A stretch of 64,000 nt of DNA from Vicinamibacteria bacterium (GCA_963422395.1 OY729431.1:2016001-2080000), one strand, 5' to 3'; counted from the stretch's first letter, positions 1,176 to 23,900 are shown. Notes: generated from the sequence alone by a model not told the origin. Numbers and translations: made by a program.

Positions 1176-2269
1176 GACGGGCACTCTCGGCCGGGCGCGA
1201 GGCGGTCGCGCTGCCGGGGGCGGAACGGTCCGGCGATCGAAGCCGCCCTCCCGACGCCTCCTTGCCACCCGGAAACTGCAGCGAGCTCGACAAGCTCGAG
1301 GGACCCCTCGGGGGGAGGGTTCGCCCGCCGCCGATCAGCGCTCGGAACTTCGGCGGAATCACGGTTCCCCACCCCTTTCCGTATCAGGGCAGCAAGCGGA
1401 GCATCGCCCGCCACATCCTTCCGCACTTCCCGCGATCCATCGGCAGTCTGATCGAACCCTTCTGCGGATCCGCGGCGCTCTCCATCGCCGCCGTGTCCCA
1501 CGGGCTTGCCGAGAGAGTCTGGCTGAACGATGTCAACGCGCCGCTCATCAGGCTATGGGGCGAGATCCTGGAAAACCCCGAGAGACTCGCTGCAGGCTAC
1601 GGAGCGCTGTGGAACGAGCAGCGCGCCGATCGCAAGCAGTTCTTCCTCCGGATCCGAAGGGAGTTCAACGAGACTCATGAAACGCATCATCTCCTCTACC
1701 TGCTGGCGCGCATCGTGAAAGGATCCATTCGTTACGGCCGGGACGGCCGCTTCAACCAGAGTCCGGACAACCGCCGGGCGGGAATGCGGCCGGCAACGAT
1801 GCGGCGGCAGATCCTGGGAGTCTCGAATCGTCTCTCCGGAAGAACGAGACTCACGGCTTCGGACTACCGGATGGTGGCGGCCCAGGCAGCGGCGGAGGAT
1901 CTGGTGTACCTGGATCCTCCGTACCAAGGCACTTCCTCTTCTCGCGACCAACGCTACTACAGTGGTGTCGGGTATGGAGAATTGGTGGGGACACTTCAGG
2001 AGATGAATGCCGCGGGGATTTCCTTCATCGTCAGTTACGACGGTCGAACCGGGAACAAGGATCACGGAAGATCCCTTCCGGAGGAGCTGTCGCTCACCAG
2101 GCTTCCCATTCGATCCGGGGTGTCGAGCCAGTCTGTTTTGTTGGGAAACGCTTCCGAGACGATCGAGTCTCTCTATCTTTCTCCCGCCCTCAGGTCCCGC
2201 CTCGACAGCGGAGAGGAGCGGGGACACCGCCGAAGGGGCGCGGCTCACGCCCACTCTTTGTTCGCATGA
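1172..2269 (+). CDS. Dam/D12-family N6-adenine DNA methyltransferase of a Type II R-M pair
   Basis: PYQGSKR, motif I LIEPFCGSAA, catalytic LVYLDPPY. ATG at 1172 overlaps the upstream stop (ATGA). The conserved domain begins only near 1360, so the start is uncertain. Confidence 0.88.
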   Translation: MRRALSAGREAVALPGAERSGDRSRPPDASLPPGNCSELDKLEGPLGGRVRPPPISARNFGGITVPHPFPYQGSKRSIARHILPHFPRSIGSLIEPFCGSAALSIAAVSHGLAERVWLNDVNAPLIRLWGEILENPERLAAGYGALWNEQRADRKQFFLRIRREFNETHETHHLLYLLARIVKGSIRYGRDGRFNQSPDNRRAGMRPATMRRQILGVSNRLSGRTRLTASDYRMVAAQAAAEDLVYLDPPYQGTSSSRDQRYYSGVGYGELVGTLQEMNAAGISFIVSYDGRTGNKDHGRSLPEELSLTRLPIRSGVSSQSVLLGNASETIESLYLSPALRSRLDSGEERGHRRRGAAHAHSLFA

Positions 2270-2994
2270 GCGAACGAAATCTTCCAGAAGCCTTCCGCAG
2301 GCTTCTGGAGGCAGTAGATGCCAAGAGGCCTCGAACGGTAATCCAGCATCTTCTGAAGCATGGGCAGATAACGACCGAAGACCTGCAGACCAGGTATGGA
2401 TACAACCATCCGCCGAGAGCGATCCGAGATGTGCGGGAGCTGGGAATCCCGATCGATACCTTCCGGGTGACCGGATCGGATGGCAGGAGTATTGCGGCGT
2501 ACAGATTTGGCGATCCGAAACAGGTGCGCGCAGCACTGATGGGACGCACCGCATTCGCTGCTGGCTTGAAAAACGAACTCCTGGAGAATCCCGGTACGCG
2601 CTGCAATATCTATCTCGAAGAATTTCCTGCTCAGGAGCTGCAGATCGATCATCGAATTCCCTTCGAGATCGCCGGCGATCACCCAGCATCCGCGGATCCC
2701 GACCGATACCTGCTCCTGTGCGCCTCGGCGAACCGGGCGAAGTCATGGAGCTGTGAGCACTGCACGAACTGGAAGCAGAAAGACCCGAAAATCTGCAAGT
2801 CCTGTTATTGGGCCTATCCAGAGGAATATACCCATGTCGCCATGCGCGAGATCCGCCGTCTCGACATTCTCTGGCGAGACGACGAAATCTCCGACTACGA
2901 AAATCTTCGGAAGGTTTCCTCGATAGCTCGACAGGAGATTCCGGAATATGTGAAGAGCGTGCTGCGGAAAATCTTTTCGGGAAAGGAGAGCTGA
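2266..2994 (+). CDS. HNH-type Type II restriction endonuclease, SphI-like
   Basis: N-terminal HTH-like YNHPPRAIRD, HNH core LQIDHRIPF...LCASANRAKSWSCEHC and CKSC. ATGA overlap with the MTase and visibly lower GC. The resemblance to R.SphI is from recall of that sequence. Confidence 0.78.
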   Translation: MSERNLPEAFRRLLEAVDAKRPRTVIQHLLKHGQITTEDLQTRYGYNHPPRAIRDVRELGIPIDTFRVTGSDGRSIAAYRFGDPKQVRAALMGRTAFAAGLKNELLENPGTRCNIYLEEFPAQELQIDHRIPFEIAGDHPASADPDRYLLLCASANRAKSWSCEHCTNWKQKDPKICKSCYWAYPEEYTHVAMREIRRLDILWRDDEISDYENLRKVSSIARQEIPEYVKSVLRKIFSGKES

Positions 2995-4829
2995 TGACCA
3001 GGATCGGGGCCGACGATCGGTTCGCTGTGAAGATGCAGGGTCTTGCCGTTGCCGCGATGGCGATCGCGGCCGCTGCCGGATCGGTGTGTGCCGCCAGTGC
3101 AATGGAGCGCGACGAGCCGCTTCACGCGCTTTTCGATGAATTCATGGAGTTCCGGCGCCGTGAGGAGCCTCGCTTCGCGGCCTCGATCGACGGAATCCCT
3201 CCGGAGAGCCTCGGCCGGGTGACCGAAGTGCATGTCGCGAACCGAACTGCCATGGTCCGGGAGTTCCGGGACCGACTCCTGGAGATTCCCCATGAGCGGC
3301 TCTCGGACGAAGACCGCGTGCACCGCGATGTGTTCGAGGTGGCGCTTTCCGAAAGGATCGGCGACGCCCGGTTCGGCGCCCACTTCCTCCCCATCAACGC
3401 CGATTCGGGCTTCCACATCGGAATGGCGCGGCTCCCGCATTCGATCCCCCTGCGCGCTGCAGCGGATTACGAGGCGTATATCGCCCTGCTCCTCGACATC
3501 CCGCGTTACTTCGATGAATACATCGCCCTGATGCGGCGGGGGATCGAACTGGGTATGACGGTCCCCGGCATCGTCCTCGAGGGATATGAGGGCACGATCA
3601 CCAGTCATGTGGTCGAGGACCCCGAAGCGAGCGTTTTCTTCGCGCCCTTCGATGCCTTCCCCGAGCGGATCGGCGAGGCAGATCGCGGGCGGCTCCGCTC
3701 CGCTGGCGCAGCAGCAGTGAGAGAAGGCCCGATATCCGCTTACCGATCCTTTCTCGACTTCTTCGAGAACGAATACCGCCCTGCGGCCCGAACTACGATC
3801 GCCGCGTCGGACCTGCCGGCAGGAGAAGAGTACTACGCATTCCTCATCGGTCGGTTCACCACTCTCGACCGGACAGCCGAGGAAATCCACCGAATCGGCC
3901 TCGAAGAAGTGGAGCGCATCCGCGGCGAGATGGATCAGGCGATGCGCGCCACCGGTTTTCGCGGGGAATGGGACGCCTTCCTGGAGTTCCTGCGTACCGA
4001 TCCCCGCTTCTATGTGGAGACTCCCGAAGAGCTGCTGCGAGAAGCGGCATGGATCGTGAAACGGATGGACGGTGCGCTGCCGCGCCTGTTCCGCCAGCTG
4101 CCCCGCCAGCCCTACACCGTGGAGCCGGTGCCGGACGCCATCGCGCCGAAGTACACCGGTGGTCGCTATGTGGGAGCCCCACTCGCCTCCACGCAGCCGG
4201 GTCGCTACTGGGTGAATACCTACCGGGTCGAAAGTCGTCCGCTCTATACCCTCGAAGCGCTCTCTCTCCACGAAGCGGTCCCCGGCCATCACTTGCAGAT
4301 CTCGCTCGCCAAAGAGCTCGAAATGCCTGCGTTTCGCCGGCACTTCGGGATCGGCGCATACAGCGAGGGCTGGGCGCTCTATTCGGAGCGGCTCGGCCTC
4401 GAGGCGGGCTTCTACGAAGATCCCTACCGCAATTTCGGCCGACTGACCTACGAGATGTGGCGTGCCTGCCGACTGGTGGTGGACACCGGAATGCACGCTC
4501 TCGGCTGGACCCGCCAGCAAGCCCTCGACTACCTCGCCGCAAACACCGCGCTCTCGCTCCACGAGATCACTACCGAGACCGACCGCTATATCGCTTGGCC
4601 GGGGCAAGCGCTCGGCTACAAGATGGGTGAGCTCAAGATCCGTGAAATGCGCGCACTCGCCGAGGCCGCGTTGGGGGAGGACTTCGACATCCGCGAGTTC
4701 CACCACCAGGTTCTCTCGAATGGTCCGGTGACTCTCCCGATCCTCGACCGCCTCCTCCGGACCTGGATCTCGGAGCGTTCCACTTCGGAAGCACCAGAGC
4801 CCCTCGGGGATGGAGATCGCGGTGACTAG
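2994..4829 (+). CDS. DUF885 family exported protein (metallopeptidase-like HExxxxH)
   Basis: AAGGAG RBS and TGATG overlap; signal-like Ala-rich N-terminus; LHEAVPGHHLQ, EGWALYSE, RACRLVVDTGMH, PGQALGYKMG. Confidence 0.92.
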   Translation: MTRIGADDRFAVKMQGLAVAAMAIAAAAGSVCAASAMERDEPLHALFDEFMEFRRREEPRFAASIDGIPPESLGRVTEVHVANRTAMVREFRDRLLEIPHERLSDEDRVHRDVFEVALSERIGDARFGAHFLPINADSGFHIGMARLPHSIPLRAAADYEAYIALLLDIPRYFDEYIALMRRGIELGMTVPGIVLEGYEGTITSHVVEDPEASVFFAPFDAFPERIGEADRGRLRSAGAAAVREGPISAYRSFLDFFENEYRPAARTTIAASDLPAGEEYYAFLIGRFTTLDRTAEEIHRIGLEEVERIRGEMDQAMRATGFRGEWDAFLEFLRTDPRFYVETPEELLREAAWIVKRMDGALPRLFRQLPRQPYTVEPVPDAIAPKYTGGRYVGAPLASTQPGRYWVNTYRVESRPLYTLEALSLHEAVPGHHLQISLAKELEMPAFRRHFGIGAYSEGWALYSERLGLEAGFYEDPYRNFGRLTYEMWRACRLVVDTGMHALGWTRQQALDYLAANTALSLHEITTETDRYIAWPGQALGYKMGELKIREMRALAEAALGEDFDIREFHHQVLSNGPVTLPILDRLLRTWISERSTSEAPEPLGDGDRGD

Positions 4830-4917: not shown

Positions 4918-7900
4918 TCAGCGGTTTCCGGGGATCCTCCTTCCCGGCGTCCACGGGGCGCCCGCTGCTTCGAGGTCGGCTTCGAGCCGAGCCAGGTCTT
5001 CCTCGAGGAGTGAACGCAGCTCGATCCGGAGCGTCTCGAACTCTTCGCCAGCGATCCGCAGGCTCTCGCGCTGGGTATCGGTAGGCGTCTGCCGGGTGTC
5101 CCAGTGGCCGCCCGCGACCTGCGAAACCCGGCCGCGGATCGAGGGAGCGGCGGGGTGGTTGCGCGACCCTCGGGCGGGATCCCCGTTCAGACGCACTTCG
5201 AGCCCGGAGAGGGTTTCGAGGAGGCCGTCCAGGCGAGAGAAGACCGCCTCTGCGGCGCGGGGAGTGCGCTCGAGTGCTGCCCGCAAGTGGCGGAGACGTT
5301 CCCGTATGCGGCTGGCCTCGGCTCCGGCGCCCAGCACCTGCCGCAGCAGCGCGGCGGTTTCGGACTGAAACGCGGCGACTGCCGCCGGATCGGTTCCCTC
5401 GGGAAGGTTCGGCACCGGTTTCACCCGGAACCGCTGCGGTTCACCGAGATTTCGGACGCCGCTGCTGCTGACCGCGATCAGCTCCGCCTGGTACTCGCCC
5501 GGCGCCGCCAGCGGCCCCTGCGGAGGCCGCACCCACGGCGGAGTGAATCCGGGAGAGTCGAGACGCACCGGGTTCGGCGCCGGGCCACGCAGGTCCCAGG
5601 CGACCCGGTGGACGCCGTCCTCGGCGGGACCGGCGACCCGACGCACCGGCGCCCCGCGGTCGTCCCGGATCAGCAGGAAAACCGACGGGTCCGCTTCCAA
5701 CTCCTCCAGCCGCAGCGCGTCGAAGCCCGGAAACGGAATGTCCCGACCGGCTTCCCCGGCCTTCTTCTCGTCGGCGCGGCGCTTTTCGCGCGCCGTCTGG
5801 AGTTCCTCGCTGAGGTAGTAGGTGAACACCGCGCCGAACGGCGGGTTGGCAGCCGCATAGGCGGTGCTCCCCTGCGTCGGGCGTCCCGGAGCCTGCGCCG
5901 GCACGGACGGGATATACCACCACGCGTCGCGCGCCGGGAAGAGGGTGGATTCGCCGGAGCGGACCGCGGCGGCGAGGCTCCGGAGCGGGGCGTAGTCGTC
6001 CAGGATGAAGAAGCCGCGCCCGAAGGAAGCGCCGACGAGGTCGTCATCGCGGCGCTGCAGTTCCAGGTCGCGGAAAGCGATCGTCGGAGCGCCCGGCAGC
6101 CGGACCCAGTGTTCCCCGCGGTTCCACGACACATAGAGCCCGTTCTCGGCGGCCAGGAACAGGAGAGCCGGTTCCACATCGTCCTGTTCGATCGCCCAGA
6201 CGATCACCCCTTCGGGGAGGTCACCGCCGATCGACCGCCAGCTCGTTCCCCGGTCGCGGCTCTCGTAGAGATACGCGTCGAAATCGCCCATCTTGTGGTT
6301 GTCCGCCGCCACGAAGACGGTATCGGCGTCGTGCTGCGACGCCTCCACATCGTTGATGAAGGAAAGCGCCGGCAATCCGGGGAACGAGCCCACCGGCTCC
6401 CACGAACCGCCGCCGTCGCCGCTGCGGTGCACCAAGCCGTCGTCGCTGCCGGCATAGAGAACGCCGGCGGCGACCGGCGACTCGCTGATCGCGGTGAGGG
6501 TCGCATAGCGGGACATCGCTGCGGTGTCGTGGAGGTCGTCCACGCTCCACACCCGGTCGTAGAAGGGCAGCTCGTAGCGGTTGCGGCCGGTGGTCAGATC
6601 ACCGCTGGCCGCAGCCCACGACTGGCCCCGGTCCTCGCTCCGCCAGACTCGCTGGGATCCATACCAGAGGTGGTCGGGGTCATGCGGACTGAGAAGGAGA
6701 GGCGCGTCCCAGTTCCATCGCTCGGGCGGCTCTCCAGGCGCCGGCAGCGGCTGGAGGTGGAGCACTTCGCCGCTCCGGCGGTCGGCTCGCTGCAAGTTGC
6801 CCTGTTGGGTCATCAGATAGAGGATCTTCGGATCGCGCGGATCGATCTGGACACCGTAGCCGTCGGCCCCGAGAGGCACATACCAGTCCCGGTTTCGGAT
6901 CCCCTCCAGGTTCAGCGTGCGGGAAGGGCCATGCACCGTACCGAGATCCTGCGCCCCGCCGAGCAGGTCGTAGAAGGGCTCGGCATCGCTCAGTGCCACC
7001 TTGTAGAACTGGGAGATCGGCAGGTTCGGGAAGTGGCGCCAACTCGCACCCTCGTCGAAGGTCTCGTAGAGCCCGGCGTCGGTGCCCGCGAGCAGGTGGG
7101 CGTGGTCTTCGGGGTCGATCCAGAGCGCGTGGTTGTCGCTGTGCTTCTCGCGTCCGGTTCCGAGGGGGGAGAAGGTCCGGCCGCCGTCGCGGGTCACATG
7201 CAAGAAGACATCCATCTGGTACACGAGATCGGGATCCGTGGAGGACGCCTCGATCTCCTGGTAGTAGTGGGGGCCGGTCCCGCCGGAGAGGTAGGGACTC
7301 TGCCGCTCCCAGCTCTCGCCGAGGTCCAGGGAGCGGTAGAAGCCCCGCACTTCTTCTTCGGCTTCGATCGTCGCATAGAGCCGGCTAGGGTCCGCGGCGG
7401 TCACCGCGAGTCCGATCTTGCCCACCTGTCCCTCGGGAAGCCCGCGGGAGATCCGGCGGAAACTGCGGCCTCCGTCGGACGACTTGTAGATTCCGGAGCC
7501 GGGACCCCCGGCCAGGAACGACCAGACATGCCGGCGCCGCTGGTAGGTCGCCGCATAGACGGTGTCCGGGTCGCCGGGGGCGAACTCGAGATCCGTCGCC
7601 CCGGTGTCCGGCCCGGAATCGAGCACCAGGGTCCAGTGCGCTCCCCCGTCTTCGGTCCGGTACACCCCCCGCTCCCCGCCGCTGTTCCAGAGCGGACCCT
7701 CCGCCGCCACCAGCACGGTGTCTCCATCGCGCGGGTCCACCAGGATCTTTCCGATGTGCTGCGAGCCGGCGAGCCCCATCCGTTCCCACGAACCGCCGCC
7801 GTCCCGGCTCCGGTACACCCCGTCGCCCCAGCCGACATGCCGCCCGCTCACATTCTCGCCGGTGCCGAGCCAGACGACCTCCGGATTCGAGGGGTCGAGG

Positions 7901-8259
7901 GTGACCGCCCCGATGGAGTAGGAGGGGTACTCGTCGAAGACCGGCGTCCAGGTCGTTCCCGCGTTCTCCGTCTTCCAGAGCCCGCCGGAACCAACGGCCG
8001 CATACCAGGTGGACTGCCGCTCCGGGTGCACCGCGATGTCCGCGATGCGGCCTCCCATGAGGGCCGGGCCGATCCCGCGGAGCTCCAGTCCGGAGATCGC
8101 CTCCGCGACCGCCGCGGGGGCGGGTGTCCGGTCCTGATCTTCAGGCTGGCTCCCCGCTGGGCCTCCTGTCGGGATGCCCGATCGGCTCGCCGCCGGGCTC
8201 GCCGCCAGCGCCGCGGCCGCGAGCAGCAGGACGAACCCGATCTTCTTCGACGACTTCAT
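4918..8259 (-). CDS. Exported BNR/Asp-box repeat (VPS10/sortilin-like) glycosyl hydrolase-like protein
   Basis: Signal peptide MKSSKKIGFVLLLAAAALAA; RGIGPALMGGRIADI; many S/T-x-D-G-G-x-S/T-W Asp-boxes; C-terminal coiled coil. Confidence 0.88.
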   Translation of the reverse strand: MKSSKKIGFVLLLAAAALAASPAASRSGIPTGGPAGSQPEDQDRTPAPAAVAEAISGLELRGIGPALMGGRIADIAVHPERQSTWYAAVGSGGLWKTENAGTTWTPVFDEYPSYSIGAVTLDPSNPEVVWLGTGENVSGRHVGWGDGVYRSRDGGGSWERMGLAGSQHIGKILVDPRDGDTVLVAAEGPLWNSGGERGVYRTEDGGAHWTLVLDSGPDTGATDLEFAPGDPDTVYAATYQRRRHVWSFLAGGPGSGIYKSSDGGRSFRRISRGLPEGQVGKIGLAVTAADPSRLYATIEAEEEVRGFYRSLDLGESWERQSPYLSGGTGPHYYQEIEASSTDPDLVYQMDVFLHVTRDGGRTFSPLGTGREKHSDNHALWIDPEDHAHLLAGTDAGLYETFDEGASWRHFPNLPISQFYKVALSDAEPFYDLLGGAQDLGTVHGPSRTLNLEGIRNRDWYVPLGADGYGVQIDPRDPKILYLMTQQGNLQRADRRSGEVLHLQPLPAPGEPPERWNWDAPLLLSPHDPDHLWYGSQRVWRSEDRGQSWAAASGDLTTGRNRYELPFYDRVWSVDDLHDTAAMSRYATLTAISESPVAAGVLYAGSDDGLVHRSGDGGGSWEPVGSFPGLPALSFINDVEASQHDADTVFVAADNHKMGDFDAYLYESRDRGTSWRSIGGDLPEGVIVWAIEQDDVEPALLFLAAENGLYVSWNRGEHWVRLPGAPTIAFRDLELQRRDDDLVGASFGRGFFILDDYAPLRSLAAAVRSGESTLFPARDAWWYIPSVPAQAPGRPTQGSTAYAAANPPFGAVFTYYLSEELQTAREKRRADEKKAGEAGRDIPFPGFDALRLEELEADPSVFLLIRDDRGAPVRRVAGPAEDGVHRVAWDLRGPAPNPVRLDSPGFTPPWVRPPQGPLAAPGEYQAELIAVSSSGVRNLGEPQRFRVKPVPNLPEGTDPAAVAAFQSETAALLRQVLGAGAEASRIRERLRHLRAALERTPRAAEAVFSRLDGLLETLSGLEVRLNGDPARGSRNHPAAPSIRGRVSQVAGGHWDTRQTPTDTQRESLRIAGEEFETLRIELRSLLEEDLARLEADLEAAGAPWTPGRRIPGNR

Positions 8260-8424
8260 CGGTGAGACAGCGATTCTGCCGCCGGGCCGACGGCCCTCGA
8301 TGGTAGGGTATGGCATGAGATTCGCACTCCTCTTCCCCGGGGCCCGGCTTCCTGCCAGCGGCGGCGTCGTCCCCCCCGAGGAGGGGAATGCTAGATGCGA
8401 TCCTCGAAAGGAGATGTTCGATCC

Positions 8425-9273
8425 ATGACGCTGCCTCGCAGCGCCGCTTCTCGCCGGGCGATTCGGCGCTGGCCGGCACGCCGGACGCGGTTCGTCAGCC
8501 GGGGAGTGGTGCTGGCAGTGATCTCGCTGAGCTTCGGAGGGTTGCTCTGGATCCCCACGAGCTGGGCGGGATGGGCGGTGGACATCCTGGTGCGGAGCTG
8601 GTTGGCATTCATCGGAACGGTGATGGCCCACGAGGCGGTGCACGGTCTGCTCGGCGGCTCTCGGCGGACGAACGCGGTCTGGGGGCGGATCGCCCTCTTG
8701 CCCTGCCTCGTGCCCTACGCGAATTTCCGCGCGACCCACCTCCTCCACCATCGGCACACGAACGAGCCGGATCGAGATCCGGATCTGTTCCTCCAAGACG
8801 CCCGCCGCTGGCAGCTGCCGCTCCGGGCGCTCGCCATGCCCCATCAGTGGTTCTTCTGGCTCCGCCGCCGCGGGCGGCTGCCTGCCGGCCAGCTCGCCGA
8901 CCTCTCACTGAACTACCTCGGGATCGGCGTCTGTTACCTCGCGGTCGGTCTGGTGGTGGGGCCCCTGCGCCTCTTCGCCGGAGTGCTTCCCGTCTGTTTC
9001 CTCGTTTCGCTGCTGCTCTGGATCCCGTTCGCCCATCTCACCCATGAGGGATACGCCACCGGCGCCGCCGGAGCGCGCTCCCATGACTATTTCGGCCGCC
9101 TCGCATACTGGTTCTCCTTCGGACTCTCGATGCACCGGGAACACCATCTGCGGCCCCATCTCAGCTGGATCGAGCTGCGCCAGTTCGTGCGGCGCGATCC
9201 GCACCGCCGCCTGCTGCCCCGGCGGGACTTCTGGCGCGGAGCGCCCTCCCCAGCCGCCGGCCGCTCCCGCTGA
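8425..9273 (+). CDS. Membrane fatty acid desaturase/hydroxylase family protein
   Basis: Three His boxes HEAVH, HLLHH, HREHH with hydrophobic segments; AAGGAG RBS at about 8408-8413. Confidence 0.88.
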   Translation: MTLPRSAASRRAIRRWPARRTRFVSRGVVLAVISLSFGGLLWIPTSWAGWAVDILVRSWLAFIGTVMAHEAVHGLLGGSRRTNAVWGRIALLPCLVPYANFRATHLLHHRHTNEPDRDPDLFLQDARRWQLPLRALAMPHQWFFWLRRRGRLPAGQLADLSLNYLGIGVCYLAVGLVVGPLRLFAGVLPVCFLVSLLLWIPFAHLTHEGYATGAAGARSHDYFGRLAYWFSFGLSMHREHHLRPHLSWIELRQFVRRDPHRRLLPRRDFWRGAPSPAAGRSR

Positions 9274-9283
9274 GGGAACTCCC

Positions 9284-10612
9284 CTGACGGAGTCCTTGCG
9301 GCTCACCGCGCCGGATCTGGCGTGTCTCGTCGCGGACTCGCCGAAACACCCGCTGGACTATGCGCTGATACTCCACTTCGAGCGTTCGGAGCACCCGCCT
9401 TTTTCGCCCCTCGCCCTCGAGCGCGGGGCCGAGAGTGCCCGGCAGGCGTTTCCGGTCGCCGGGAGCGTTCTCGAAAGCGGACGCCTCTCGGCCCCGGTGT
9501 GGACCCCTGCCCCCGGCCACTGTGCGGCACCGACCGTCCGGATGACCTCCGAAGAGGATTCCACTCCCTTGATCGACGGCTTTCTCGCTCCCCGCTTCCG
9601 CCTCGAAGAGGAACCGCCGCTCCGCCAGCTCCTCGCCGCGGGAGGGGATCCTCCCCGGTGGAGCCTCGTGACCCGGATCCACCACGCGGCTTCGGACCTC
9701 ATCGGCGCGCTGTTGTTCATCCGCCGCCAACTGCGGGTGGCGCAGGGAGAGGAGGTTCCTCCAAAGGCGCCGCAGCGGAGCTCCCCGCTGCTCCAACTGC
9801 GGCCCGAGCGGCCGGCGCGAAATCCGGATTCGCGGCCCTCCACTCCGCTCGCTACCCGACCCGCGCCGCGTGGATCCGCGCGCCGCTTTCGAACCTTTAG
9901 GGTGCCCCGCCTGCCGTCCTCGGGGCCGCGCGGCGGTTTCCGCTGGAACGATGCCCTGCTCGCAGCAGCACTCGAGGCGCTCGCGTCCTGGAACGACAGC
10001 CAGGGGAGCGACAGCGGGGGGAACCCCAGTCGGAGGAATCACACTCCGGGCGCTTCGAAGTCGCGGATCGGACTCTGGGTGCCGATGAACATCCGCCGGG
10101 AGCGTTTCCACGGCTTCGGAAACGGCGCGTCCCGCCTCCGGATCCACCGCGAGCCTCTCCCTTCCGGATCCGCCCCATCCTTCGAGGCTCGCTGCCGCGC
10201 AGTCCGCCGGACGATAGACCAGAAAAAGCGGGCCGGCGAGTGGGCGCTTCCCGCCTGGACCCCGCCGGCGGCGCTCGCGCGCGCCGCGGCGCCGCTCCTC
10301 GCCCGCTGGCTGGACCGTCCCTGGGCCGACTACGGCACCGCGGGCTTCACCCATCTCGGGCGCTGGCCCGGAGATGAGGACCCGGTGTTCCGCGGACTCG
10401 AAGCCATCGAGGTCGTCGCCTGCCTGCATCGGCGCCACCCGCTCTACTTCGCGGGAATGTCCCATGCCGGGCGCACCTGGGTAACGATCACCTGGGACCC
10501 AGCACTCCTCGCGCCGCAGGAAATCGACACCATCGCCGCCTCCTTCACGAACGCCCTGTCCGAGCCCGCGACGGGCGGCGGAGCACCGCTCGGACCGCCG
10601 GCCAGCGAATGA
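9284..10612 (+). CDS. Stand-alone condensation-domain / CoA-dependent acyltransferase-fold protein
   Basis: HHxxxD motif RIHHAASDLIG at about 9680, preceded by FRLEEEPPLRQLL; NDALLAA and VPMNIRR in the C-terminal lobe. Start uncertain (CTG 9284 after GAGGGA, or TTG 9296). Confidence 0.7.
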   Translation: MTESLRLTAPDLACLVADSPKHPLDYALILHFERSEHPPFSPLALERGAESARQAFPVAGSVLESGRLSAPVWTPAPGHCAAPTVRMTSEEDSTPLIDGFLAPRFRLEEEPPLRQLLAAGGDPPRWSLVTRIHHAASDLIGALLFIRRQLRVAQGEEVPPKAPQRSSPLLQLRPERPARNPDSRPSTPLATRPAPRGSARRFRTFRVPRLPSSGPRGGFRWNDALLAAALEALASWNDSQGSDSGGNPSRRNHTPGASKSRIGLWVPMNIRRERFHGFGNGASRLRIHREPLPSGSAPSFEARCRAVRRTIDQKKRAGEWALPAWTPPAALARAAAPLLARWLDRPWADYGTAGFTHLGRWPGDEDPVFRGLEAIEVVACLHRRHPLYFAGMSHAGRTWVTITWDPALLAPQEIDTIAASFTNALSEPATGGGAPLGPPASE

Positions 10613-12165
10613 ACGGCGGGATCCGCGGCCGAGTCCACGACTTTCTCCGCAGCGCGATCGCGGCGGCGCTCCGGCTCGCGGGAATCGGCGCCGGCCTCCG
10701 TCTTCGTCTGCGGCTTCGGTTCCGGCATCGGACCGAGGCGCGGCTTCGACAGCGGTACCGGATCACCGCCGACACCCCGCTGACCCGAGACCTCCCCGCC
10801 CCCGCAGACGGGGCGCCCCTCGCCATCACTTCGGGGACAGCGGGGTCCCCCCGGCAGGTGGCCTACCCGCGAAACCGCCTGCGCGCAGTCCGCCGCACCT
10901 TCGAGGACGCCATGCTGCGCCTCATCGCGGCCCACCGAATCCGGCGTCCGAGCCTCTATGTCTTCGGCCCGCTGCGCCCCGACCGCTCGCTGACCCGGTT
11001 GTTGGTCGCCGAGCCCCGTCCGCCGCCGGGTTTCGTACTCCTCCAGGCGCCCTACCGCGCCCAGTCCGACCCGGCGATCCTTCGCCTCGCCGACGAGTAC
11101 GGCGACGCGGCGCTGCGGTTGCTGCTCCTCACCCTGTCGAATCCGGGGATCCTCTACGCCACCAACCCCTCGACCCTGAGCACTTTTTTCGACGAGCTGG
11201 ACGCCGACTGGGAACGTGCCTCGGCGCTCGCCCGAACCGTCAGCCGCAGCCCGCCGGCACTCGATCCCGCGGCGCTCCGTATCCTCCGGCGGCTCCGCTC
11301 CACCGGAGATTCCGGCCGGCTGGCCCGACTCGCCGCGAGCCCGGCGCCCCTGCCCATCACCGCCTGGGCCCCCGCCGCGGCCATCTGTGTCTGCTGGACC
11401 GGCGGGGCGGTCCGTCCCTTCCTGGATCGACTGGACCGGCGGCTTCCAGCTCCTCGCTTCTGCCGCATTCCCATGTTCTCGATGTCCACCGAGACCGTCG
11501 AGACGATTCCGGATTTCCGCGGCCCGGAGCCTGCCTTCCTTCCGTTCGCACCCGGAGTCCTCCATGAGTTCCTCGACCAGCAGGCGGCGAACCCGCGGCT
11601 CCTATCTTCAGGCGAGCTGCAGCCGGGCGGAATCTACGAAATGGTGGTGAGCCACCGCTTCGGACTCACGCGCTATGCGACCGGCGATCTTTTTCGGGTG
11701 GCGCGCCTCACCGCCTCCGGCCCGGACCTGCGCTTCGCGCGCCGGCGCCTTCTCGGTTGGTCCTTCACCGGGGAGAAGATCACCGCGCAACAGGTGGGCT
11801 CTGCCTTCGATGCTGTCGACGCGGCATGGCCCGGCCTGCGCACGGCATTCTGGCTGGCGCTTTTTCCGGAGGATCCCGGCGCACCGGCCAGACCCGGCTA
11901 CCGGCTGGCCGCCGTCGGCCGCGGGCCGGAGAGCGCCGGAGCCCAAGCGCTGCCCCCCGGTCTCGAAGGGCAGCTGGACGCACTGCTCTCGGAGCAGAAC
12001 CCGGAGTACCGGGCCAAACGGGAGAGCGGCCGGCTGGGCCCGATCCGCCTGGCACAGCCGAGCCTCGTCGAGTTCGTCCGCCGTGCCTCCGGAGAGCGCG
12101 CCGCCTCGCCGGACTCCCAGTTCAAGTTCCAGCCGTTCTATCCGCGCCAGTGGGAGGCGGAATGA
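10609..12165 (+). CDS. GH3-family acyl-adenylating (acyl-acid amido synthetase-like) protein
   Basis: ITSGTAG P-loop, SMSTE, YEMVVSHRFGLTRYATGD, FTGEKIT, QNPEYRAKRESGRLGP; ATGA overlap with the upstream gene. Confidence 0.8.
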   Translation: MNGGIRGRVHDFLRSAIAAALRLAGIGAGLRLRLRLRFRHRTEARLRQRYRITADTPLTRDLPAPADGAPLAITSGTAGSPRQVAYPRNRLRAVRRTFEDAMLRLIAAHRIRRPSLYVFGPLRPDRSLTRLLVAEPRPPPGFVLLQAPYRAQSDPAILRLADEYGDAALRLLLLTLSNPGILYATNPSTLSTFFDELDADWERASALARTVSRSPPALDPAALRILRRLRSTGDSGRLARLAASPAPLPITAWAPAAAICVCWTGGAVRPFLDRLDRRLPAPRFCRIPMFSMSTETVETIPDFRGPEPAFLPFAPGVLHEFLDQQAANPRLLSSGELQPGGIYEMVVSHRFGLTRYATGDLFRVARLTASGPDLRFARRRLLGWSFTGEKITAQQVGSAFDAVDAAWPGLRTAFWLALFPEDPGAPARPGYRLAAVGRGPESAGAQALPPGLEGQLDALLSEQNPEYRAKRESGRLGPIRLAQPSLVEFVRRASGERAASPDSQFKFQPFYPRQWEAE

Positions 12166-12784
12166 AGCGGAGCAGCTCCCCGAACGAAGGAAAGTCCCGA
12201 CCCAGGATCAGGCTCCGGCAGCCCGCCGCCAGCGCCGCCCGACCGTCGGTGTCCGGTCGGTTCCCGAGGTGGAGAAGAGCACCCGCAGGAATCCTCAGAT
12301 CGGCGGCCGCCTGCCGGAACACCCCGGCGTCCGGTTTCAGTACCCCGAGCGCTTCCGCAGCGTAGATCCGGTCGAAACACTCGCCGAGGCCGAGCGCGGC
12401 GATCCGGGGGGCGGACTCGAAGTCGGACACCGCGACCGCAATGCGTCCGGCCACCCGAAGGCCGTTCAGCAGCGCCCGCACTCCCGCCGCTGGGCCGATC
12501 CGCCGGATCGCCGGCAGCAGCAGGAGGGTTTCGCTCTCGAGGCGCCGGGCGATCCCGGATCGCCAGCCGGCAGGCAGCAACCCGCGGTCGGCCCTGAGCA
12601 GCTCGACTTCACGGCGAAACCGGCGGAGCCGGCGCAGCTCCCGGAGAGACTCCGCCGGATGTCCGGCGAGCGCGCACCGGAGGGACTCGGCCGCCACCGC
12701 GGCCGAGAGCGCCCGGTCGGAATAGAGCGTGCCGTCCACATCGAAGGAGACGGCCGTGATTCCGAGGAATGGATCCGGCGCCAT
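12122..12784 (-). CDS. HAD-superfamily hydrolase
   Basis: Motif I FDVDGTLY, VSD, LKPD, HLGNRPDTD. Confidence 0.85.
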   Translation of the reverse strand: MAPDPFLGITAVSFDVDGTLYSDRALSAAVAAESLRCALAGHPAESLRELRRLRRFRREVELLRADRGLLPAGWRSGIARRLESETLLLLPAIRRIGPAAGVRALLNGLRVAGRIAVAVSDFESAPRIAALGLGECFDRIYAAEALGVLKPDAGVFRQAAADLRIPAGALLHLGNRPDTDGRAALAAGCRSLILGRDFPSFGELLRFIPPPTGADRTAGT

Positions 12785-17629: not shown

Positions 17630-20600
17630 ATGCCGATGCAGTTCCTGAAGAGCCCGCGGGCTGCGGTTCGGATCGCGGCTGCTCGACGGTTCCTGGGCCG
17701 GCTCGATCCGGGAGCGCCGTTCCTCGCCATCGGACAGCATCGCCATGCCGCCGATCGGCTCTGCCACGAGATCATCGAAACGCGGGAGCTCCGGAAAGGG
17801 GCTCTGCTGGGAGCTTTCCGCTACGGATTCGCCGCGCTCGCCGCGCGCCTCGCCGCACCCGAACTGGCGGCCCGGGGGATGGAGCCGCTCTCTCCCGCCG
17901 TCCGGTTGGCCTGCGTCGTCCGGGTGCTGCATCGCGCCCGGCGGGCCGGGACTCTGGGCAGGTTCGGGGAGGTGGCGCGGGGGCCGGGACTCGCGGCGCG
18001 GCTGGCGAGCACTTTCGACGAACTACGCCGCACCGGGATCTCCGCCCAGGGGACCGCCGACGCGGATCCCGATCTCGGCCGGCTCTACTCTCGCTATATC
18101 GAGACGCTCGACGGGTCGCGGCTGGCTGACCGCGCCGAGATCTTCGACGCCGCCCGGCGGAACCTCGAGGCGGGCGCCACCCCCTTCGCACGGAGGCCGG
18201 TGGGGCTTCCCGCAGTGTTCCTGGATGTCCCGCTCCACGACCGTTCGGCGAAGCGCTTCGCCGCCGCGCTGGCCGCCGCCTCCCCGGCGGTCCTGTTCAC
18301 GATCCCCACCGGGGACGACCTGACCGGCAAGACCGTGCTGGATTTCGGGGCTGCGCCGGACGCCGGCGGGGAAGTCGGCGGAACCGCGCCAGACGACGCC
18401 GTAGCGGCGGTGCAGCAGTGCCTGTTCGAGACTCGGCGTCCGGATCCACACCCAGACCCCTCGGTCGAACCATGCGGGCTCACCGTGATCTCCGCGCCGG
18501 GGAACGCCGCCGAGGCGCTTGCGGCGGCGCGCATCTTCCTGGCGGAAGCTTCCGGCGGGACCGCCTTCGATCGAATGGCGGTGCTGCTCCCGAATCCCGG
18601 CAGGCAAGCATCCGGGTTCCGGGAAGCGTTCCAAAGGGCTGGGATTCCGGCATTCTTCGAAGCCGGCGCCCGCCTCCCGCATCCGGCAGGCCGCGCATTC
18701 CTCGCGCTTCTCGACTGTGCCCGCGAAGATCTCTCCGCCGCCCGGTTCGCGGAGTACCTCTCGCTCGGGGAAACCCCAGGCGGAGGTGCCGACCACGGGA
18801 TGGCTCCGGGGGAAGCCACCGATCCCGAAGGGACCGGCCAGAAGGTCGACGACCCCTGGGCCACTGCCCCCCCGGGTGCCTCGGATAGGGAACGCGGGGA
18901 CGAAGAAGCGCCCCGCCGCTGGGAACGCCTCATCCGGGACGCCGAGGTGATCGGGGGCCTCGACCGTTGGAAGCGTCGGCTCGCGCGTTTCCGCGACCAG
19001 CTCCGGCGGGACGAAGAGGCGGAGGAAGATCCCGCGAGGCGGGAGCAGATCCGGCTCCGCCGGGAGGACATGCGCCGGCTGACGGAGACCGCGCTCCCGA
19101 TCCTGAACCTGCTCGATCGGCTGCCTGCTCCGCACGCCCGCTTCGGAGAATGGGCGGAGCACCTCGGAACATTGGCGCGCACCGCCCTCCTCCATCCGGA
19201 GGGAGTGATCGAGTGCCTGGACGAGACCGCACCGATGCGCGAAGTGGACGAAGTGACCCTCATCGAGATCCGGAGGAGCCTCGGGCGGCGCCTTTCCGAG
19301 GTGGTACCCCGCTCCCGCGGCAGCCGTTACGGCCAGGTGTGGGTCGGACCGATCGAGGCGGTGCGCGGGCTCGATTTCGAAATCGTGGCGGCGCCCGGGC
19401 TTTCGGAGCGAGCGTTCCCGCGCCCGATCCGTGAGGATCCCATGCTGCCCGACCGGCAGCGGCGCCTGCTGTCGCCGGAACTCCCGCTCCGGGAGGACTT
19501 CGTGGAGCGCGAGCGTCTCCGCCTGCGCCTGGTGGCGGGGGCGGCGACGCGCCGGCTCTTCCTCAGCTACTCCTCGCTCGATCTCGTCGAGGGGCGGCAG
19601 CAGGTCCCTTCCTATCACCTCGCCGAGGCATTCCGGGCGGGGCTCGGCCGGATCCCCACGCTGGGCGCTATCCGGAAGGCCGCCGGAGAGTCCAGCGGAG
19701 TCCTCCGCGGGCTCCGCGCCCCGAAGGATTCTTCGCTCGCCATCGATCGGCGCGAGTTCGACCTCTCGTGCGTCGCGAAGGCGCTCGGAACTCCCGAAAC
19801 TCCGGGACGCCCGGGGGCTGCTGCCTTTCTGGTCTCGAATCCCGCACTCGGCCGGGCGCTCCGCCAGGAGTACCTGCGGCAGTCCCGGAAGTGGCAGTCC
19901 ACCGATGGTTTTCTGTTCCCGAACCAGCCCGCGCTCGCCGCGCTCGCCGCCCACCGGCCGGCGAACCGGGCATACTCGGCGACCGGCCTCGAGTCCTTCG
20001 CCGCCTGCCCCTACCAGTTCTTTCTCAAGAACCTGATTCGGCTGCGGCCGACGGAACGGCCCGACGCGGTGGTGCAGCTCGATCCCTTGAGCCGCGGCTC
20101 GCTGCTGCACGAAGTGTTCTTCCATCTGGGGCAGCAGTTCCGGGCGCAGGGCCTCGCACCGCTCACCGAAGCGAGGCTCGATGAGGCGTACTCCGTCCTC
20201 GACGATGTGTTCCGGCAGGTGGAGGCGGAGCAGAAGGATCGGCTGGCGCCGGCAGTGGAGCGGATCTGGCGCGACCAGATGGACGGTCTGCTCGGCGACC
20301 TGCGCGGCTTCCTGGAACGGCTGGCCGGAACCGGCGTCGAAATCGTCGCGAACGAGTTCACCTTCGGGATGCCGGCGAGACAGCCCGCCGACCCGCGCAG
20401 CACGAGCGAGCCGGTGCTGCTACCGGGCGGGCTCCGCCTCCACGGCTCGATCGATGCGGTGGAGCGTCTTCCCGACGGAACGACCCGAATCACCGACTAC
20501 AAGACCGGCCGAGCTTCCACCGAGACCTGGCGCAACCGGAACGAGCGGATCCTCTTCGGCGGCAAGTCGATGCAGCCGCTCCTCTACGCGCTCGCCCAAG

Positions 20601-20920
20601 AGGCACTTTCCGGGGAGCCGGTCGCTTCGGGCCGCCTCTACTACTCCACCGTCCGCGGCGCTTACTTGCAGACGGAGGTGGACACCGGGAGCCCGGAATC
20701 GCGGCAGGTCTTCGAGAAGTTCCTCGCGGCCCTGGACCGCGCGGTCGCACACGGCCGGTTGCCCGCCCACCCCGATCCGGGACTTCGTTACCTCGTCTGC
20801 GACTCCTGCGACTACCTCCCGGTGTGCGGACCGCACCCGGCCGCCCACCACCGGACCAAAGCCGGGCCGGAGGTCGCCGCCGCGCTCCGCGAGGCCCGGG
20901 AGATCCGTCAGCTTCCTTGA
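17630..20920 (+). CDS. addB: AddB-like subunit: inactive helicase fold plus PD-(D/E)xK nuclease with Fe-S staple
   Basis: RGLDFEIVAAPGL..FP, YSATGLESFAACPYQF, GSLLH, GSIDAV, TDYKTG, QPLLY, CDSCDYLPVC; directly upstream of an addA-like gene. Confidence 0.8.
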   Translation: MPMQFLKSPRAAVRIAAARRFLGRLDPGAPFLAIGQHRHAADRLCHEIIETRELRKGALLGAFRYGFAALAARLAAPELAARGMEPLSPAVRLACVVRVLHRARRAGTLGRFGEVARGPGLAARLASTFDELRRTGISAQGTADADPDLGRLYSRYIETLDGSRLADRAEIFDAARRNLEAGATPFARRPVGLPAVFLDVPLHDRSAKRFAAALAAASPAVLFTIPTGDDLTGKTVLDFGAAPDAGGEVGGTAPDDAVAAVQQCLFETRRPDPHPDPSVEPCGLTVISAPGNAAEALAAARIFLAEASGGTAFDRMAVLLPNPGRQASGFREAFQRAGIPAFFEAGARLPHPAGRAFLALLDCAREDLSAARFAEYLSLGETPGGGADHGMAPGEATDPEGTGQKVDDPWATAPPGASDRERGDEEAPRRWERLIRDAEVIGGLDRWKRRLARFRDQLRRDEEAEEDPARREQIRLRREDMRRLTETALPILNLLDRLPAPHARFGEWAEHLGTLARTALLHPEGVIECLDETAPMREVDEVTLIEIRRSLGRRLSEVVPRSRGSRYGQVWVGPIEAVRGLDFEIVAAPGLSERAFPRPIREDPMLPDRQRRLLSPELPLREDFVERERLRLRLVAGAATRRLFLSYSSLDLVEGRQQVPSYHLAEAFRAGLGRIPTLGAIRKAAGESSGVLRGLRAPKDSSLAIDRREFDLSCVAKALGTPETPGRPGAAAFLVSNPALGRALRQEYLRQSRKWQSTDGFLFPNQPALAALAAHRPANRAYSATGLESFAACPYQFFLKNLIRLRPTERPDAVVQLDPLSRGSLLHEVFFHLGQQFRAQGLAPLTEARLDEAYSVLDDVFRQVEAEQKDRLAPAVERIWRDQMDGLLGDLRGFLERLAGTGVEIVANEFTFGMPARQPADPRSTSEPVLLPGGLRLHGSIDAVERLPDGTTRITDYKTGRASTETWRNRNERILFGGKSMQPLLYALAQEALSGEPVASGRLYYSTVRGAYLQTEVDTGSPESRQVFEKFLAALDRAVAHGRLPAHPDPGLRYLVCDSCDYLPVCGPHPAAHHRTKAGPEVAAALREAREIRQLP

Positions 20921-20941
20921 ACGCCCGTTGAAAGTCGAACG

Positions 20942-23900
20942 ATGACCTCGGTGGAGAGTCTGCCGGACGCCGCCGCGCGCGAGCGGATTCGCACCGACCA
21001 CGGCACCACGCTGATCGTGGAAGCCGCCGCCGGGACCGGGAAGACCACCGAGGTGGTCCGCCGGATCGTGGAGCTGATCGCAGTCGGACGGGCCGAGGTC
21101 CGCCAGATCGCGGCGATCACCTTCACCCAAAGGGCCGGAGGCGAGTTGCGTCTGCGGATTCGGCAGGGGATCGAAACCCGGATCGAAGCCGAGCGCGCAA
21201 GCGGGGGCGATCCGGCGGCGCGGGTGCAGCTCGAACAAGCGCTGGCACAGATCGAAGAAGCCTCCATCGGGACGATCCACACCTTCTGCGCGACGCTGCT
21301 CCGCGAACATCCGGTCGAGGCCGGAGTAGACCCCGATTTCGAGGTCCTGGCCGACCGGGATCGACGCATCTTCTTCGATCGGGTCTTCCAGCAGTTCGCG
21401 GTCGAGCAGCTCGCCTCCCCCGAGCCGGGAGTGGCGCGCCTGCTGCGCTGCAGCCGGAATCCGAAGGAAAGCCCTCTCGATCTGCTTCGGGAGGCGGGCT
21501 CCCGGCTCCTCGATCACCGGCACCTCGACGCTCCCTGGACACGAAAGCCTTGGAATCGGCAAGTAGAGATCGAGCGCCTTCTCGGTGAAGATCTGGAGAT
21601 CTCCAGGGACGACCCGCGCTCCGGCACGCCGAAGACGGGGACCGTTCCATCGCTCTCTTCCCTGGAAGCCCTCTACCGGAAGTTCCGGGATCCACCGGGT
21701 GCCAGAACCAACTGGCTCGTCGCTTCGATGGCGGAGGCGGCCGACCTGATGCGGGAGATACGGCTCCGCGAGGCCGCCGGAGTAGGGGATCCGGACTGGA
21801 CGGAGCAGGCGCTCGCGTCCTTGCGGATGAAACGCCACCGCGGCTTCGTTCCGACCGGCGCGCCAGCCGACCTCCGCGAGCAGCGGGACGCCTTCGGCGA
21901 TCGGCTCGATCACTTCCGGGAGCAGAGCCGAGCCGACCTCGCCGCGCTGCTCCGCGAAGACCTGCGGGGTCTGGTCGCTCTCTACGAAGAAAGGAAGCGG
22001 AAGGCCGGACTCCTCGATTTCGACGACCTGCTCCTCTTCGTCCGCGGCCTGCTGCGTGCGAACGCCGCGCTGCGCGCCGAACTGCGGGGCCGCTTCCGAC
22101 AGATCCTGGTGGACGAGTATCAGGACACCGATCCGCTCCAGACGGAAATCCTGCTGCTGCTCACCGCTCAGGACCCGCCGGGCGGCGACTGGACGGAGGC
22201 GGTTCCGATCCCCGGGCGTCTTTGCCTGGTCGGAGACCCCAAGCAGTCCATCTACCGCTTCCGGCGCGCCGATGTGCGTCACTACCTCGAAGTCAAAAAG
22301 CATCTCCTGCGCAGCGGCGGCGCCGAAGTCCGGCTCACCACGAACTTTCGCTCGGTGCCTGTTCTGTGCACCTTCGTCAACGAGGTCATGGAGCCGGTCT
22401 TCAGGCAGGCGGAGGGAGTGCGGCCGCTGGCGCGGCAGGTGGACTACTCCCGGCTCCAGCCGTTCCGGAGCCCGCTGCCCGGCAGCGCCCCCCTGGCACC
22501 GATTCCGCTCTCCTCCGAGTATCTCCGCAACCTCGAACAGGAGGAACCTGCCGCGGTGGCGAAGTTCGTCGAGCAGCTCCTGGAAAGCGGCTTCGAGGTG
22601 ACGGACCGTGAATCCGGCGCGGTGCGTCCGGTGGAGCCCAGTGACATCTGCATGCTCTTCCGCCGCTTCCGCTCCTATCGAAAACTCGTGCCGCAGCGCT
22701 ACGCGGAAGGACTCGTGGAGCGGGGGATTCCGCACGCCCTCGGCGCCGTCCGGAGTTACATCGGCAGCGCCGAGCTCGTGAGCCTGCGCGCCGCCCTCAC
22801 CGCGATCGAATTCCCCGACGACGAGCTGAGCGTCTATGCGGCACTGCGCGGCCCGCTGTTTTCGATCCCGGATCAGGACCTCTTCCTCTTCCGGGAGGGC
22901 CGCGGGGGGCGGCTCCGCCCTTCGGACGCCGCGCAGCTCGAACTCGGGGACGACGCGAGCGACGCGGACCGTGCGATCCGGGAAGCGCTGCGGTTCCTCT
23001 TTCGGCTGCACCGGCAGCGCAACCACCTGCCCATCGCGATCACCCTTCAGGCGCTCCTCAGCGAGAACCGCGCCGAGTCCGCCTTCGCCTTCTGGAAATC
23101 GCCCGATCAGGTGTTCTCGAATCTCCGCCGGCTCACCGAAGCCGCGCGCGCATTCGAAGCACGAGGCGGGTTGTCGTTCCGCGGCTTCGTGGAGCAGCTC
23201 GACGCCGAGGTCGAGAATCCAGGTTTCGGCCCCTCCCAGGCGATGGACGAGGATGTGAGCGGAGTGCGGATGATGACGATCCATTCCGCCAAGGGCCTCG
23301 AGTTTCCGGTCGTGATCCTCTGCGACGCGGCACACACCAGAAACGCGCGCGCCCAGCGGATCGTCCGGCCCGAGCGAAACCTCCACGCCTGCGATCTCGG
23401 CGACCGCCTGTTCCCCTGGGATCTGCTCGAAGGGGCGGACCGGGAGGAAGCCGAAGGACTCGCCGAAGAGGACCGGATGCTCTATGTGGCGATGACCAGG
23501 GCGCGCGACCTGCTCGCTGCACCGGTGTTCGATCTGCGGTTCGAGAACGACAGCATGCTCCGACCGGTCTCGCGCGGGTTGAGCCGTTTCCGCGAATCCA
23601 GCGAGCGGAACACCGATCCGACCGGCTGGTCTCGGCGGAGCGCAGCGAAGTGGGAGATCCTGAAAGCAGCCGGGAACGAAACGGCAGCGAAGGAGGGCGA
23701 ACAGGCCGAGAGGGGGTTCCTCGCCCGACGGCGACTGGCCCTCGAGACCGGGCGGATTCCCCGCCGCCGCACCACGAAGGCCGCCGTCTTCGTCGCGGAG
23801 ACAGCGAGCGAAGAGCATGACGCCGCCGCGGGGGAGCTCCACATTCTCTCCCGTGATCCGGACTGCCCGAGCGGCGCCGGGTTCGGGAACCTCGTCCGCC

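Follow-up and report, generated by a model that had tools for sequence, protein, structure and literature searches.

The closest known system to the locus described here is the OlsH/OlsI(/OlsG) ornithine-lipid pathway of Singulisphaera acidiphila, from which it differs in its partner enzymes. As described in the available sections of the source paper, to which all statements on this pathway refer, OlsH is a GH3-like enzyme that forms N-acyl-ornithine from a free fatty acid, adenosine triphosphate (ATP) and Mg2+, the amide step needs neither coenzyme A (CoA) nor acyl carrier protein (ACP), and OlsI, a separate alpha/beta-hydrolase O-acyltransferase, attaches the second chain (PMC12493201). Non-hydroxylated fatty acids are preferred by OlsH, and Ser115 in motif 1 of the enzyme is essential (PMC12493201); in our view, the former makes a hydroxylase acting after amidation a logical requirement. 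Here we analyze a gene cassette of a Vicinamibacteria bacterium, located in a stretch of 64,000 nucleotides (GCA_963422395.1 OY729431.1:2016001-2080000; hereafter the window, from whose first letter coordinates are counted), in which the gene of a divergent GH3 protein is coupled to those of a membrane oxygenase (DES) and a free-standing condensation-fold acyltransferase (MID). An earlier note, made from the sequence alone, had proposed that these three genes specify a carrier-independent pathway to an N-acyl amide or modified lipid, and had counted most bacterial GH3 proteins as uncharacterised, missing the characterised precedent of OlsH/OlsI.

The cassette resembles OlsH/OlsI in that a bacterial GH3 is encoded in a small operon beside a separate acyltransferase, and both systems are found in genomes without OlsB/OlsF. 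Just as the OlsH amide step proceeds without CoA or a carrier protein, no carrier protein is encoded in the window. The window GH3 shares with OlsH the three nucleotide motifs and the motif-1 serine, its invariant S75 corresponding to Ser115. In contrast, the second enzyme of the cassette has a condensation fold with an HHxxxD motif, whereas OlsI is an alpha/beta-hydrolase, and no alpha/beta-hydrolase was found in the cassette operon or among its conserved neighbours. Unlike OlsH/OlsI, the cassette further comprises a membrane His-box oxygenase and a linked hydrolase of the HAD family, and it lacks an OlsG methyltransferase. A desaturase or condensation-type partner does not occur in the available sections of PMC12493201 and occurs once, in an unrelated context, in those of the 2026 review PMC12971839; the DES/MID/GH3 combination is undescribed in the literature searched, the scope of which did not include subscription-only papers.

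Predicted enzymes of the cassette

The gene calls place three co-oriented genes on the + strand, where the earlier note had seen them: DES (8425-9273), encoding a membrane di-iron enzyme of the fatty-acid desaturase/hydroxylase family with 282 amino acids (aa), MID (9296-10612), encoding a soluble free-standing condensation-fold acyltransferase of 438 aa, and GH3 (10609-12165), encoding a divergent, predicted GH3-family adenylating acid-amine ligase of 518 aa. A fourth gene, HAD (12122-12784, - strand), encodes a HAD-IA phosphatase-type hydrolase of 220 aa and is convergent, its 3' end overlapping that of GH3 by 44 nt. The ATGA overlap between the MID stop and the GH3 start codon (10609-10612) is present as previously reported, but the 10-nt gap described between DES and MID did not stand, because it presumes the in-frame CTG at 9284, which is not a standard start. 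We placed the MID start at the TTG at 9296, which leaves 22 nt after the DES stop codon (9271-9273) and is the position at whose equivalent the N-termini of homologues begin (MRLTAPDLACL in locus L018); a GGAG 3 nt 5' of this TTG supports the choice weakly, because the spacing is short. For DES, an alternative ATG start at 8395 is possible.

DES matches the Pfam family FA_desaturase (PF00487; E = 6.9e-26, 92 bits against a cut-off of 29.7) and contains hydrophobic segments at residues 23-46 and 160-206 as well as all three His boxes of a membrane desaturase, as the earlier note had claimed (HEAVH at 8629-8643, HLLHH at 8737-8751 and HREHH at 9133-9147). Among 18 orthologues, with a mean column identity of 63%, eleven histidines are invariant, namely H69/73, H105/108/109 and H237/240/241, plus H140, H207 and H220. 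Among the NCBIfam models, DES is most similar to CrtR (E = 2.5e-12) and CrtW (E = 2e-9), but it falls far short of both equivalog cut-offs (46.5 versus 475 bits and 37.2 versus 350 bits, respectively). NCBIfam names none of DES, MID and GH3, and a search of the ESM Atlas with DES returned generic 'fatty acid desaturase' clusters only. The substrates of membrane His-box enzymes are lipophilic. OlsE, DEGS-type and other His-box enzymes are, like DES, membrane di-iron proteins, and they modify amide-linked lipids after these have been synthesized; N-acyl sphingoid bases, for instance, are the substrates of DEGS. OlsE is a member of the FA_hydroxylase superfamily, whereas DES is a PF00487 protein of a separate orthologue group that matched no curated equivalog. 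According to the available sections of PMC12971839, the substrate position hydroxylated by OlsE is the ornithine head group.

The HHAASD motif of MID lies at 9680-9697, and its residues H129, H130 and D134 are invariant in 20 homologues (consensus HHAAADGLSA), across which the motifs NDxLL and GFGNGxSRIR are also conserved. When the MID profile was compared with solved structures, the best match was the WS/DGAT structure 6chj (8.6e-5), followed by PCP-C didomains of nonribosomal peptide synthetases (NRPS; 1.1e-4). The AlphaFold2 (AF2) model of MID is confident, with a predicted local distance difference test (pLDDT) score of 85 and a predicted template modelling (pTM) score of 0.89, and Foldseek ranked AzeD (8s6l; E = 1.6e-20, template modelling (TM) score 0.69) first and NRPS C, Cy and X domains next among 316 PDB matches at E <= 0.001, with WS/DGAT at rank 42. 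The modelled protein is therefore predicted to adopt the V-shaped two-lobe fold of condensation domains and CAT-type acyltransferases, in agreement with the assignment of MID in the earlier note to the fold of NRPS C-domains and CoA-dependent acyltransferases. MID reaches no Pfam cut-off (WS_DGAT_cat 16.5 versus 23.6 bits; no match to Condensation) and scores 16.5 bits against TIGR02946, the cut-off of which is 309.95. Neither MID nor GH3 contains membrane segments.

Searching 1.84 billion cluster representatives with the MID profile yielded 2746 matches at E <= 0.001, 458 at <= 1e-10 and 132 at <= 1e-30, and no MID relative was found in viral contigs. The full-length proteins among the best 150 relatives are ~360-460 aa long; a MID-GH3 fusion, for which ~950 aa would be expected, is not among these 150, and two NRPS-sized proteins of 6179 and 5528 aa are (~1e-26 to 1e-28). 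MID shares its two-lobe fold, HHxxxD(G), NDxLL-type motif and stand-alone state with WS/DGAT, PapA5, SgcC5 and AzeD. Unlike these enzymes, it forms a small family of its own, represented by the 132 clusters found at E <= 1e-30, and has GH3 as its partner instead of a carrier protein or an enzyme of the acyl-CoA pool. The prediction of a GH3-MID complex scored 0.00, which is uninformative on binding either way.

The motifs given for GH3 in the earlier note are located at 10828-10845 (TSGTAG), 11674-11688 (YATGD) and 11767-11778 (TGEK, there given as GEK). The protein matches Pfam GH3_M (PF23571; E = 4e-10, 40.1 bits against a cut-off of 23.6), while GH3_C (PF23572) remains below its cut-off at 17.4 bits and the N-terminal domain PF03321 is unmatched at E <= 1; its clade relatives at loci L087 and L089, however, do reach PF03321 with 32.8 and 32.7 bits. 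The nucleotide motifs T74-S75-G76, PMFSMSTE (residues 288-295) and GLTRYATGD (352-360) are invariant or nearly so in 20 sequences, with consensus forms in the relatives of TSGTxGxPK, PM[YF]SMSTE and GLRRYxTGD, for comparison with the SSGTSxGxxK-like, YxSSE-like and GLYRYxxGD-like reference motifs (PMC12493201, available sections). A profile of 20 GH3 relatives (A1) matches only plant GH3 structures, JAR1 with 1.4e-11 over the C-terminal 200 residues. For the AF2 model of GH3 (pLDDT 82), the Foldseek ranks listed to 29 are all plant GH3 structures (E = 2.6e-18 to 7e-10; 455-537 aligned columns, TM 0.6-0.69), with PaaK next (3.8e-9), indicating that the two-domain GH3/ANL fold extends over the whole length. 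The N-terminus is short, as the earlier note had remarked, with motif 1 at residue 74 compared with 114 in OlsH and 100 in JAR1 (PMC12493201, available sections).

The plant enzymes JAR1/GH3.11, GH3.5, GH3.6 and GH3.12 have the same whole-length fold and the same nucleotide motifs as the model of the window GH3. The latter differs from them in being bacterial and operon-encoded, in its low identity (~15%), and in its shorter N-terminus with a conserved helical pair of 50 residues, which is specific to its clade. The substrates of plant GH3 enzymes are hormones, not lipids.

Conservation and distribution of the gene unit

A profile search of genome contigs with A1 yielded 141 relatives, of which the best 80 loci were used. 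MID lies directly upstream of GH3 on the same strand in 71 of the 72 loci with room for it; in the exception, L032, MID is found elsewhere in the genome and DES is absent from the locus. Of 70 loci, 66 have DES upstream in the same orientation, and 3 more have it elsewhere in the locus, namely inverted downstream of GH3 in the two Gemmatimonadota loci and farther upstream in L078. The recurrence of the triplet, which the earlier note had put forward as a check, is thus observed, and the arrangement is far beyond chance because the gene order is repeated in dozens of distant genomes. The records are labelled Marinacidobacterium/Vicinamibacteria, Bryobacterales, Terriglobia, Pyrinomonadaceae/Blastocatellia and Gemmatimonadota, with one Latescibacterota metagenome-assembled genome (MAG), and the GH3 identity among loci goes down to 40%. 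According to an all-against-all clustering of the loci, the open reading frames (ORFs) common to the lineages are GH3, MID, DES and HAD only; the other neighbours are lineage-specific and uninformative.

HAD matches Pfam Hydrolase (47.1 bits against a cut-off of 26.4) and reaches no equivalog cut-off. Its orthologues share a mean identity of 50% and the invariant motifs DxDGT, SD, K and GDRxDTD, with D15, D17, G18, T19, S120, D121, K150, D175 and D180 invariant or nearly so. The gene is convergent downstream of GH3 in 46 of 73 loci with room, in 27 of these within 400 nt, and follows GH3 co-directionally in L076. In each of five positive genomes the HAD profile gave exactly one match, at the GH3 locus.

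In a FastTree phylogeny of 79 GH3 rows (L053 and L072, in which the gene is cut by the contig end, were left out), the window GH3 falls into an 18-row clade of MAGs labelled Marinacidobacterium/Vicinamibacteria (support 100). The Latescibacterota row is nested within Pyrinomonadaceae (support 89), reflecting either gene transfer or a binning error. A distant MID branch (~215 bits against the MID profile), of which a three-sequence alignment (A6) was used as metagenome query, is represented by a DES-MID-GH3 arrangement on a metagenome contig of 56% G+C (L087) and by a MID-GH3 array (L088). At L087, a gene of the penicillin-amidase family (1479-3542; E = 6e-101) lies just upstream on the same strand, separated from DES by a small gene on the opposite strand; being seen at a single locus, the amidase gene may be a coincidence. 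The penicillin-amidase family includes N-acyl-homoserine-lactone acylases. One Terriglobia MAG contains two DES-MID-GH3-HAD copies with non-identical GH3 proteins (L020 and L028), carried by contigs of 6.47 Mb and 28.6 kb, the smaller of which is labelled chromosome_1.

The phyletic profile was determined in an even sample of 401 Acidobacteriota genomes, scoring matches over 500 bits as clade GH3. Clade GH3 was found in 6 of the 401 genomes (G000, G041, G084, G190, G369 and G385), DES orthologues in 7 (the same six and G057) and MID in 4 (G000, G190, G369 and G385). The sets are nested, with GH3 present in all four MID genomes and in six of the seven DES genomes. The unit is rare and conserved, and it occurs in mostly uncultured soil and marine bacteria. 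Some loci look decayed: MID of G190 is split in two by a frameshift or an assembly error, and G393 (L092), which is not counted among the six, retains a 183-aa C-terminal GH3 fragment beside an intact convergent HAD. Canonical GH3 genes, with 81-237 bits to PF03321, are found in five other Acidobacteriota genomes (L082-L086, in G040, G277, G346, G134 and G399), where the neighbours include an alpha/beta-hydrolase (Hydrolase_4) in 2 of 5 and an enolase-superfamily protein (MR_MLE) in 3 of 5; these loci differ from the cassette and may encode OlsH/OlsI-like or N-acyl-amino-acid systems.

The genome of the window (completeness 93.8%) contains a single GH3. As previously observed, the window holds neither a carrier protein nor an NRPS A-domain: it covers 2016-2080 kb, and the PP-binding matches of the genome lie only at ~88 and ~923 kb and the AMP-binding matches at ~51, 89, 446, 730 and 1509 kb. 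PF13444 (OlsB/OlsF-type) is absent from this genome and from all 7 genomes of the GH3 clade, compared with its presence in 100 of the 401 genomes overall, a signal that is weak because related genomes are not independent.

Candidate product and alternative explanations

Our favoured reading, which we hold with roughly even confidence, is that the cassette forms a small GH3-centred operon whose product is a lipid amide made without a carrier protein, with DES modifying and MID O-acylating this product. GH3 would activate a free carboxylic acid as its adenylate at the expense of ATP, a fatty acid being the likeliest substrate, and would then acylate the amine of an amino acid or amino alcohol, giving an N-acyl amide in a manner comparable to OlsH. 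As a membrane di-iron enzyme, DES may hydroxylate or desaturate the amide lipid on its acyl chain or head group. The HHxxxD centre of MID could O-acylate a free hydroxyl, with acyl-CoA or acyl-ACP as donor, resulting in a two-chain acyloxyacyl-type amino lipid, and the probable task of HAD is to remove phosphate from an intermediate or from the precursor of the head group. The product favoured here agrees with that of the earlier note, an N-acyl amide or modified lipid. It is inferred, as are the substrates, the acyl donor, the role of HAD and the sequence in which the enzymes act, whereas the protein families and folds, the intact catalytic motifs, the close gene coupling and the conserved state of the unit are observed.

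A more specific version of this scheme, which we put forward tentatively and regard as rather unlikely, is that the cassette represents a third enzyme logic for two-chain amino lipids, in which GH3 forms the amide from an ordinary free fatty acid without a hydroxyl group, DES hydroxylates the finished amide and MID esterifies the second chain onto the new hydroxyl. If so, the cassette would yield lipids of a new class, whose acyloxy position or head group has no counterpart in ornithine lipids; they might be derived from an amino alcohol or amino acid that carries a phosphate until HAD unmasks it. It would also suggest a source of the hydroxy-acyl chain for GH3-type pathways, a point left open by the work on OlsH.

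Several observations weigh against a lipid amide made by the four proteins. Condensation-fold enzymes normally use carrier-protein thioesters as donors, and GH3 enzymes also conjugate small aromatic or alicyclic acids. A presence in 6 of 401 genomes suits an accessory metabolite as well as a membrane lipid, and no cultured carrier of the cassette was identified. The accessory genes are not universal: HAD is missing in a subclade of Pyrinomonadaceae and in the one Gemmatimonadota genome that was analyzed, and no HAD was detected at E <= 1e-15 in any of the five genomes whose locus lacks it, while the acidobacterial family f45 (L089 and L090, from G041 and G084; 43-47% G+C) has a co-directional, overlapping DES-GH3-HAD operon without MID. 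Since MID is absent from f45 and HAD from these five genomes, the core chemistry can proceed without either of them, and a scheme of four steps cannot hold in general. DES and GH3 are thus the constant core, with MID and HAD as frequent and strictly linked accessories, of which HAD is a fourth member missed in the earlier note. The f45 operon is accompanied by a divergent GntR regulator, and G057 (L091) retains only GntR and DES. The window GH3 is also more divergent than OlsH, lacking a PF03321 match and having motif 1 40 residues closer to the N-terminus. In addition, the list of orders with OlsH homologues (>= 30% identity, >= 70% coverage) in the available sections of PMC12971839 includes, for Acidobacteriota, only Acanthopleuribacterales, and none of the orders listed there matches the lineage labels of the cassette loci. 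The GH3 tree of PMC12493201, as far as covered by the available sections, contains an 'Acidobacteria' clade with a Pyrinomonadaceae protein, MBC7916061.1.

Among the other explanations, the one that survives best, although we consider it unlikely, is that the cassette yields a small metabolite rather than a membrane constituent, for example a signal molecule, a conjugate resembling a hormone or an amide of the siderophore type. GH3 would then conjugate a small aromatic or alicyclic acid with an amino acid, as plant GH3 enzymes do with indole-3-acetic acid, jasmonic acid and benzoates, and DES and MID would tailor the product. This would fit the closest solved GH3 relatives, which all conjugate small acids, the top structural matches of MID, which are enzymes of secondary metabolism, the rare and patchy occurrence of the unit, and the nesting of one phylum label within another in the phylogeny of GH3, a pattern typical of accessory metabolism. 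However, DES, the invariant partner, belongs to the integral-membrane His-box enzymes, whose typical substrates are lipids. Moreover, across lineages the unit is not accompanied by any conserved gene for transport, regulation or further tailoring, and the sole characterised bacterial GH3-like enzyme uses fatty acids (PMC12493201, available sections).

A CoA-independent route to a neutral ester lipid has, in our view, only a slim chance of being correct. GH3 would in this case serve solely as a fatty acyl-adenylate ligase from whose product MID esterifies directly, forming a wax ester, an estolide or an acylglycerol-type lipid, with DES providing a hydroxyl or a double bond. The translational coupling of MID and GH3, which are almost never separated, is compatible with such a direct transfer, as are the WS/DGAT structure 6chj as the best sequence match of MID among solved structures and the lack of a carrier protein in the window; HAD-IA enzymes include sugar- and glycerol-phosphate phosphatases, which also counts in its favour. 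On the other hand, the DES-GH3-HAD variant has no MID, so that GH3 must release its product by itself, the C-terminal domain and the hinge motif of GH3 are conserved as in amide-forming GH3 enzymes, and the best 150 MID relatives are without the fusion to GH3 mentioned above.

It is highly improbable that the cassette modifies carotenoids, with DES as a CrtW/CrtR-like ring ketolase or hydroxylase, MID esterifying the hydroxyl and GH3 amidating a carotenoic acid. Although CrtR and CrtW are the nearest NCBIfam families of DES, which at 282 aa is short like them, its scores are far under both equivalog cut-offs. The genome holds one SQS_PSY gene, but it is located ~1.5 Mb from the cassette, no CrtI-family match at cut-off is found in the genome, and no carotenoid gene is conserved near any cassette locus. 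Finally, chance neighbours or mis-called ORFs without a shared function, although long spurious ORFs are common at ~70% G+C, are ruled out by the family matches, the confident folds, and the order and overlaps kept in dozens of distant genomes.

Surroundings of the cassette and implications

The G+C content of the window is ~70%. Upstream of DES and divergent from the cassette lies the gene of a large secreted sortilin/BNR-repeat protein (4921-8259, - strand; 1113 aa), which is found at the same position, with 78-84% identity, in Marinacidobacterium/Vicinamibacteria-type loci only. The intergenic region between the two genes (8260-8424) presumably contains the promoter of the cassette. A promoter/terminator scan gave nothing above shuffled expectation, and as there is no sigma-70-like match in 8260-8424, we assign this role by inference only. 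Farther downstream, the window encodes an AddB-like PD-(D/E)XK nuclease of 1096 aa followed by a UvrD/AddA-like helicase of 1160 aa (17630-24424, + strand), an ordinary repair pair, and an unusually long RNase III of 548 aa (28356-29999, + strand), with an N-terminal RNase III domain and a double-stranded RNA-binding domain at residues 481-545, two matched dsrm stretches and ~300 residues in between.

Bacterial GH3 proteins were tied to membrane-lipid synthesis only in 2025, and a single one has been characterised. The cassette is a second GH3 system, with different partners and kept as a unit across several phyla, and standard biosynthetic-cluster rules would probably miss it. If our favoured reading of a lipid amide is correct, it would represent a new CoA- and carrier-protein-independent way of making N-acyl amides or amino lipids that lack phosphorus, would give a function to a small orphan family of free-standing condensation-fold enzymes, and would offer a candidate source of the hydroxyl that bears the second acyl chain. 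Enzymes that use ATP, a free fatty acid and an amine would also be attractive for the production of N-acyl amino-acid surfactants.

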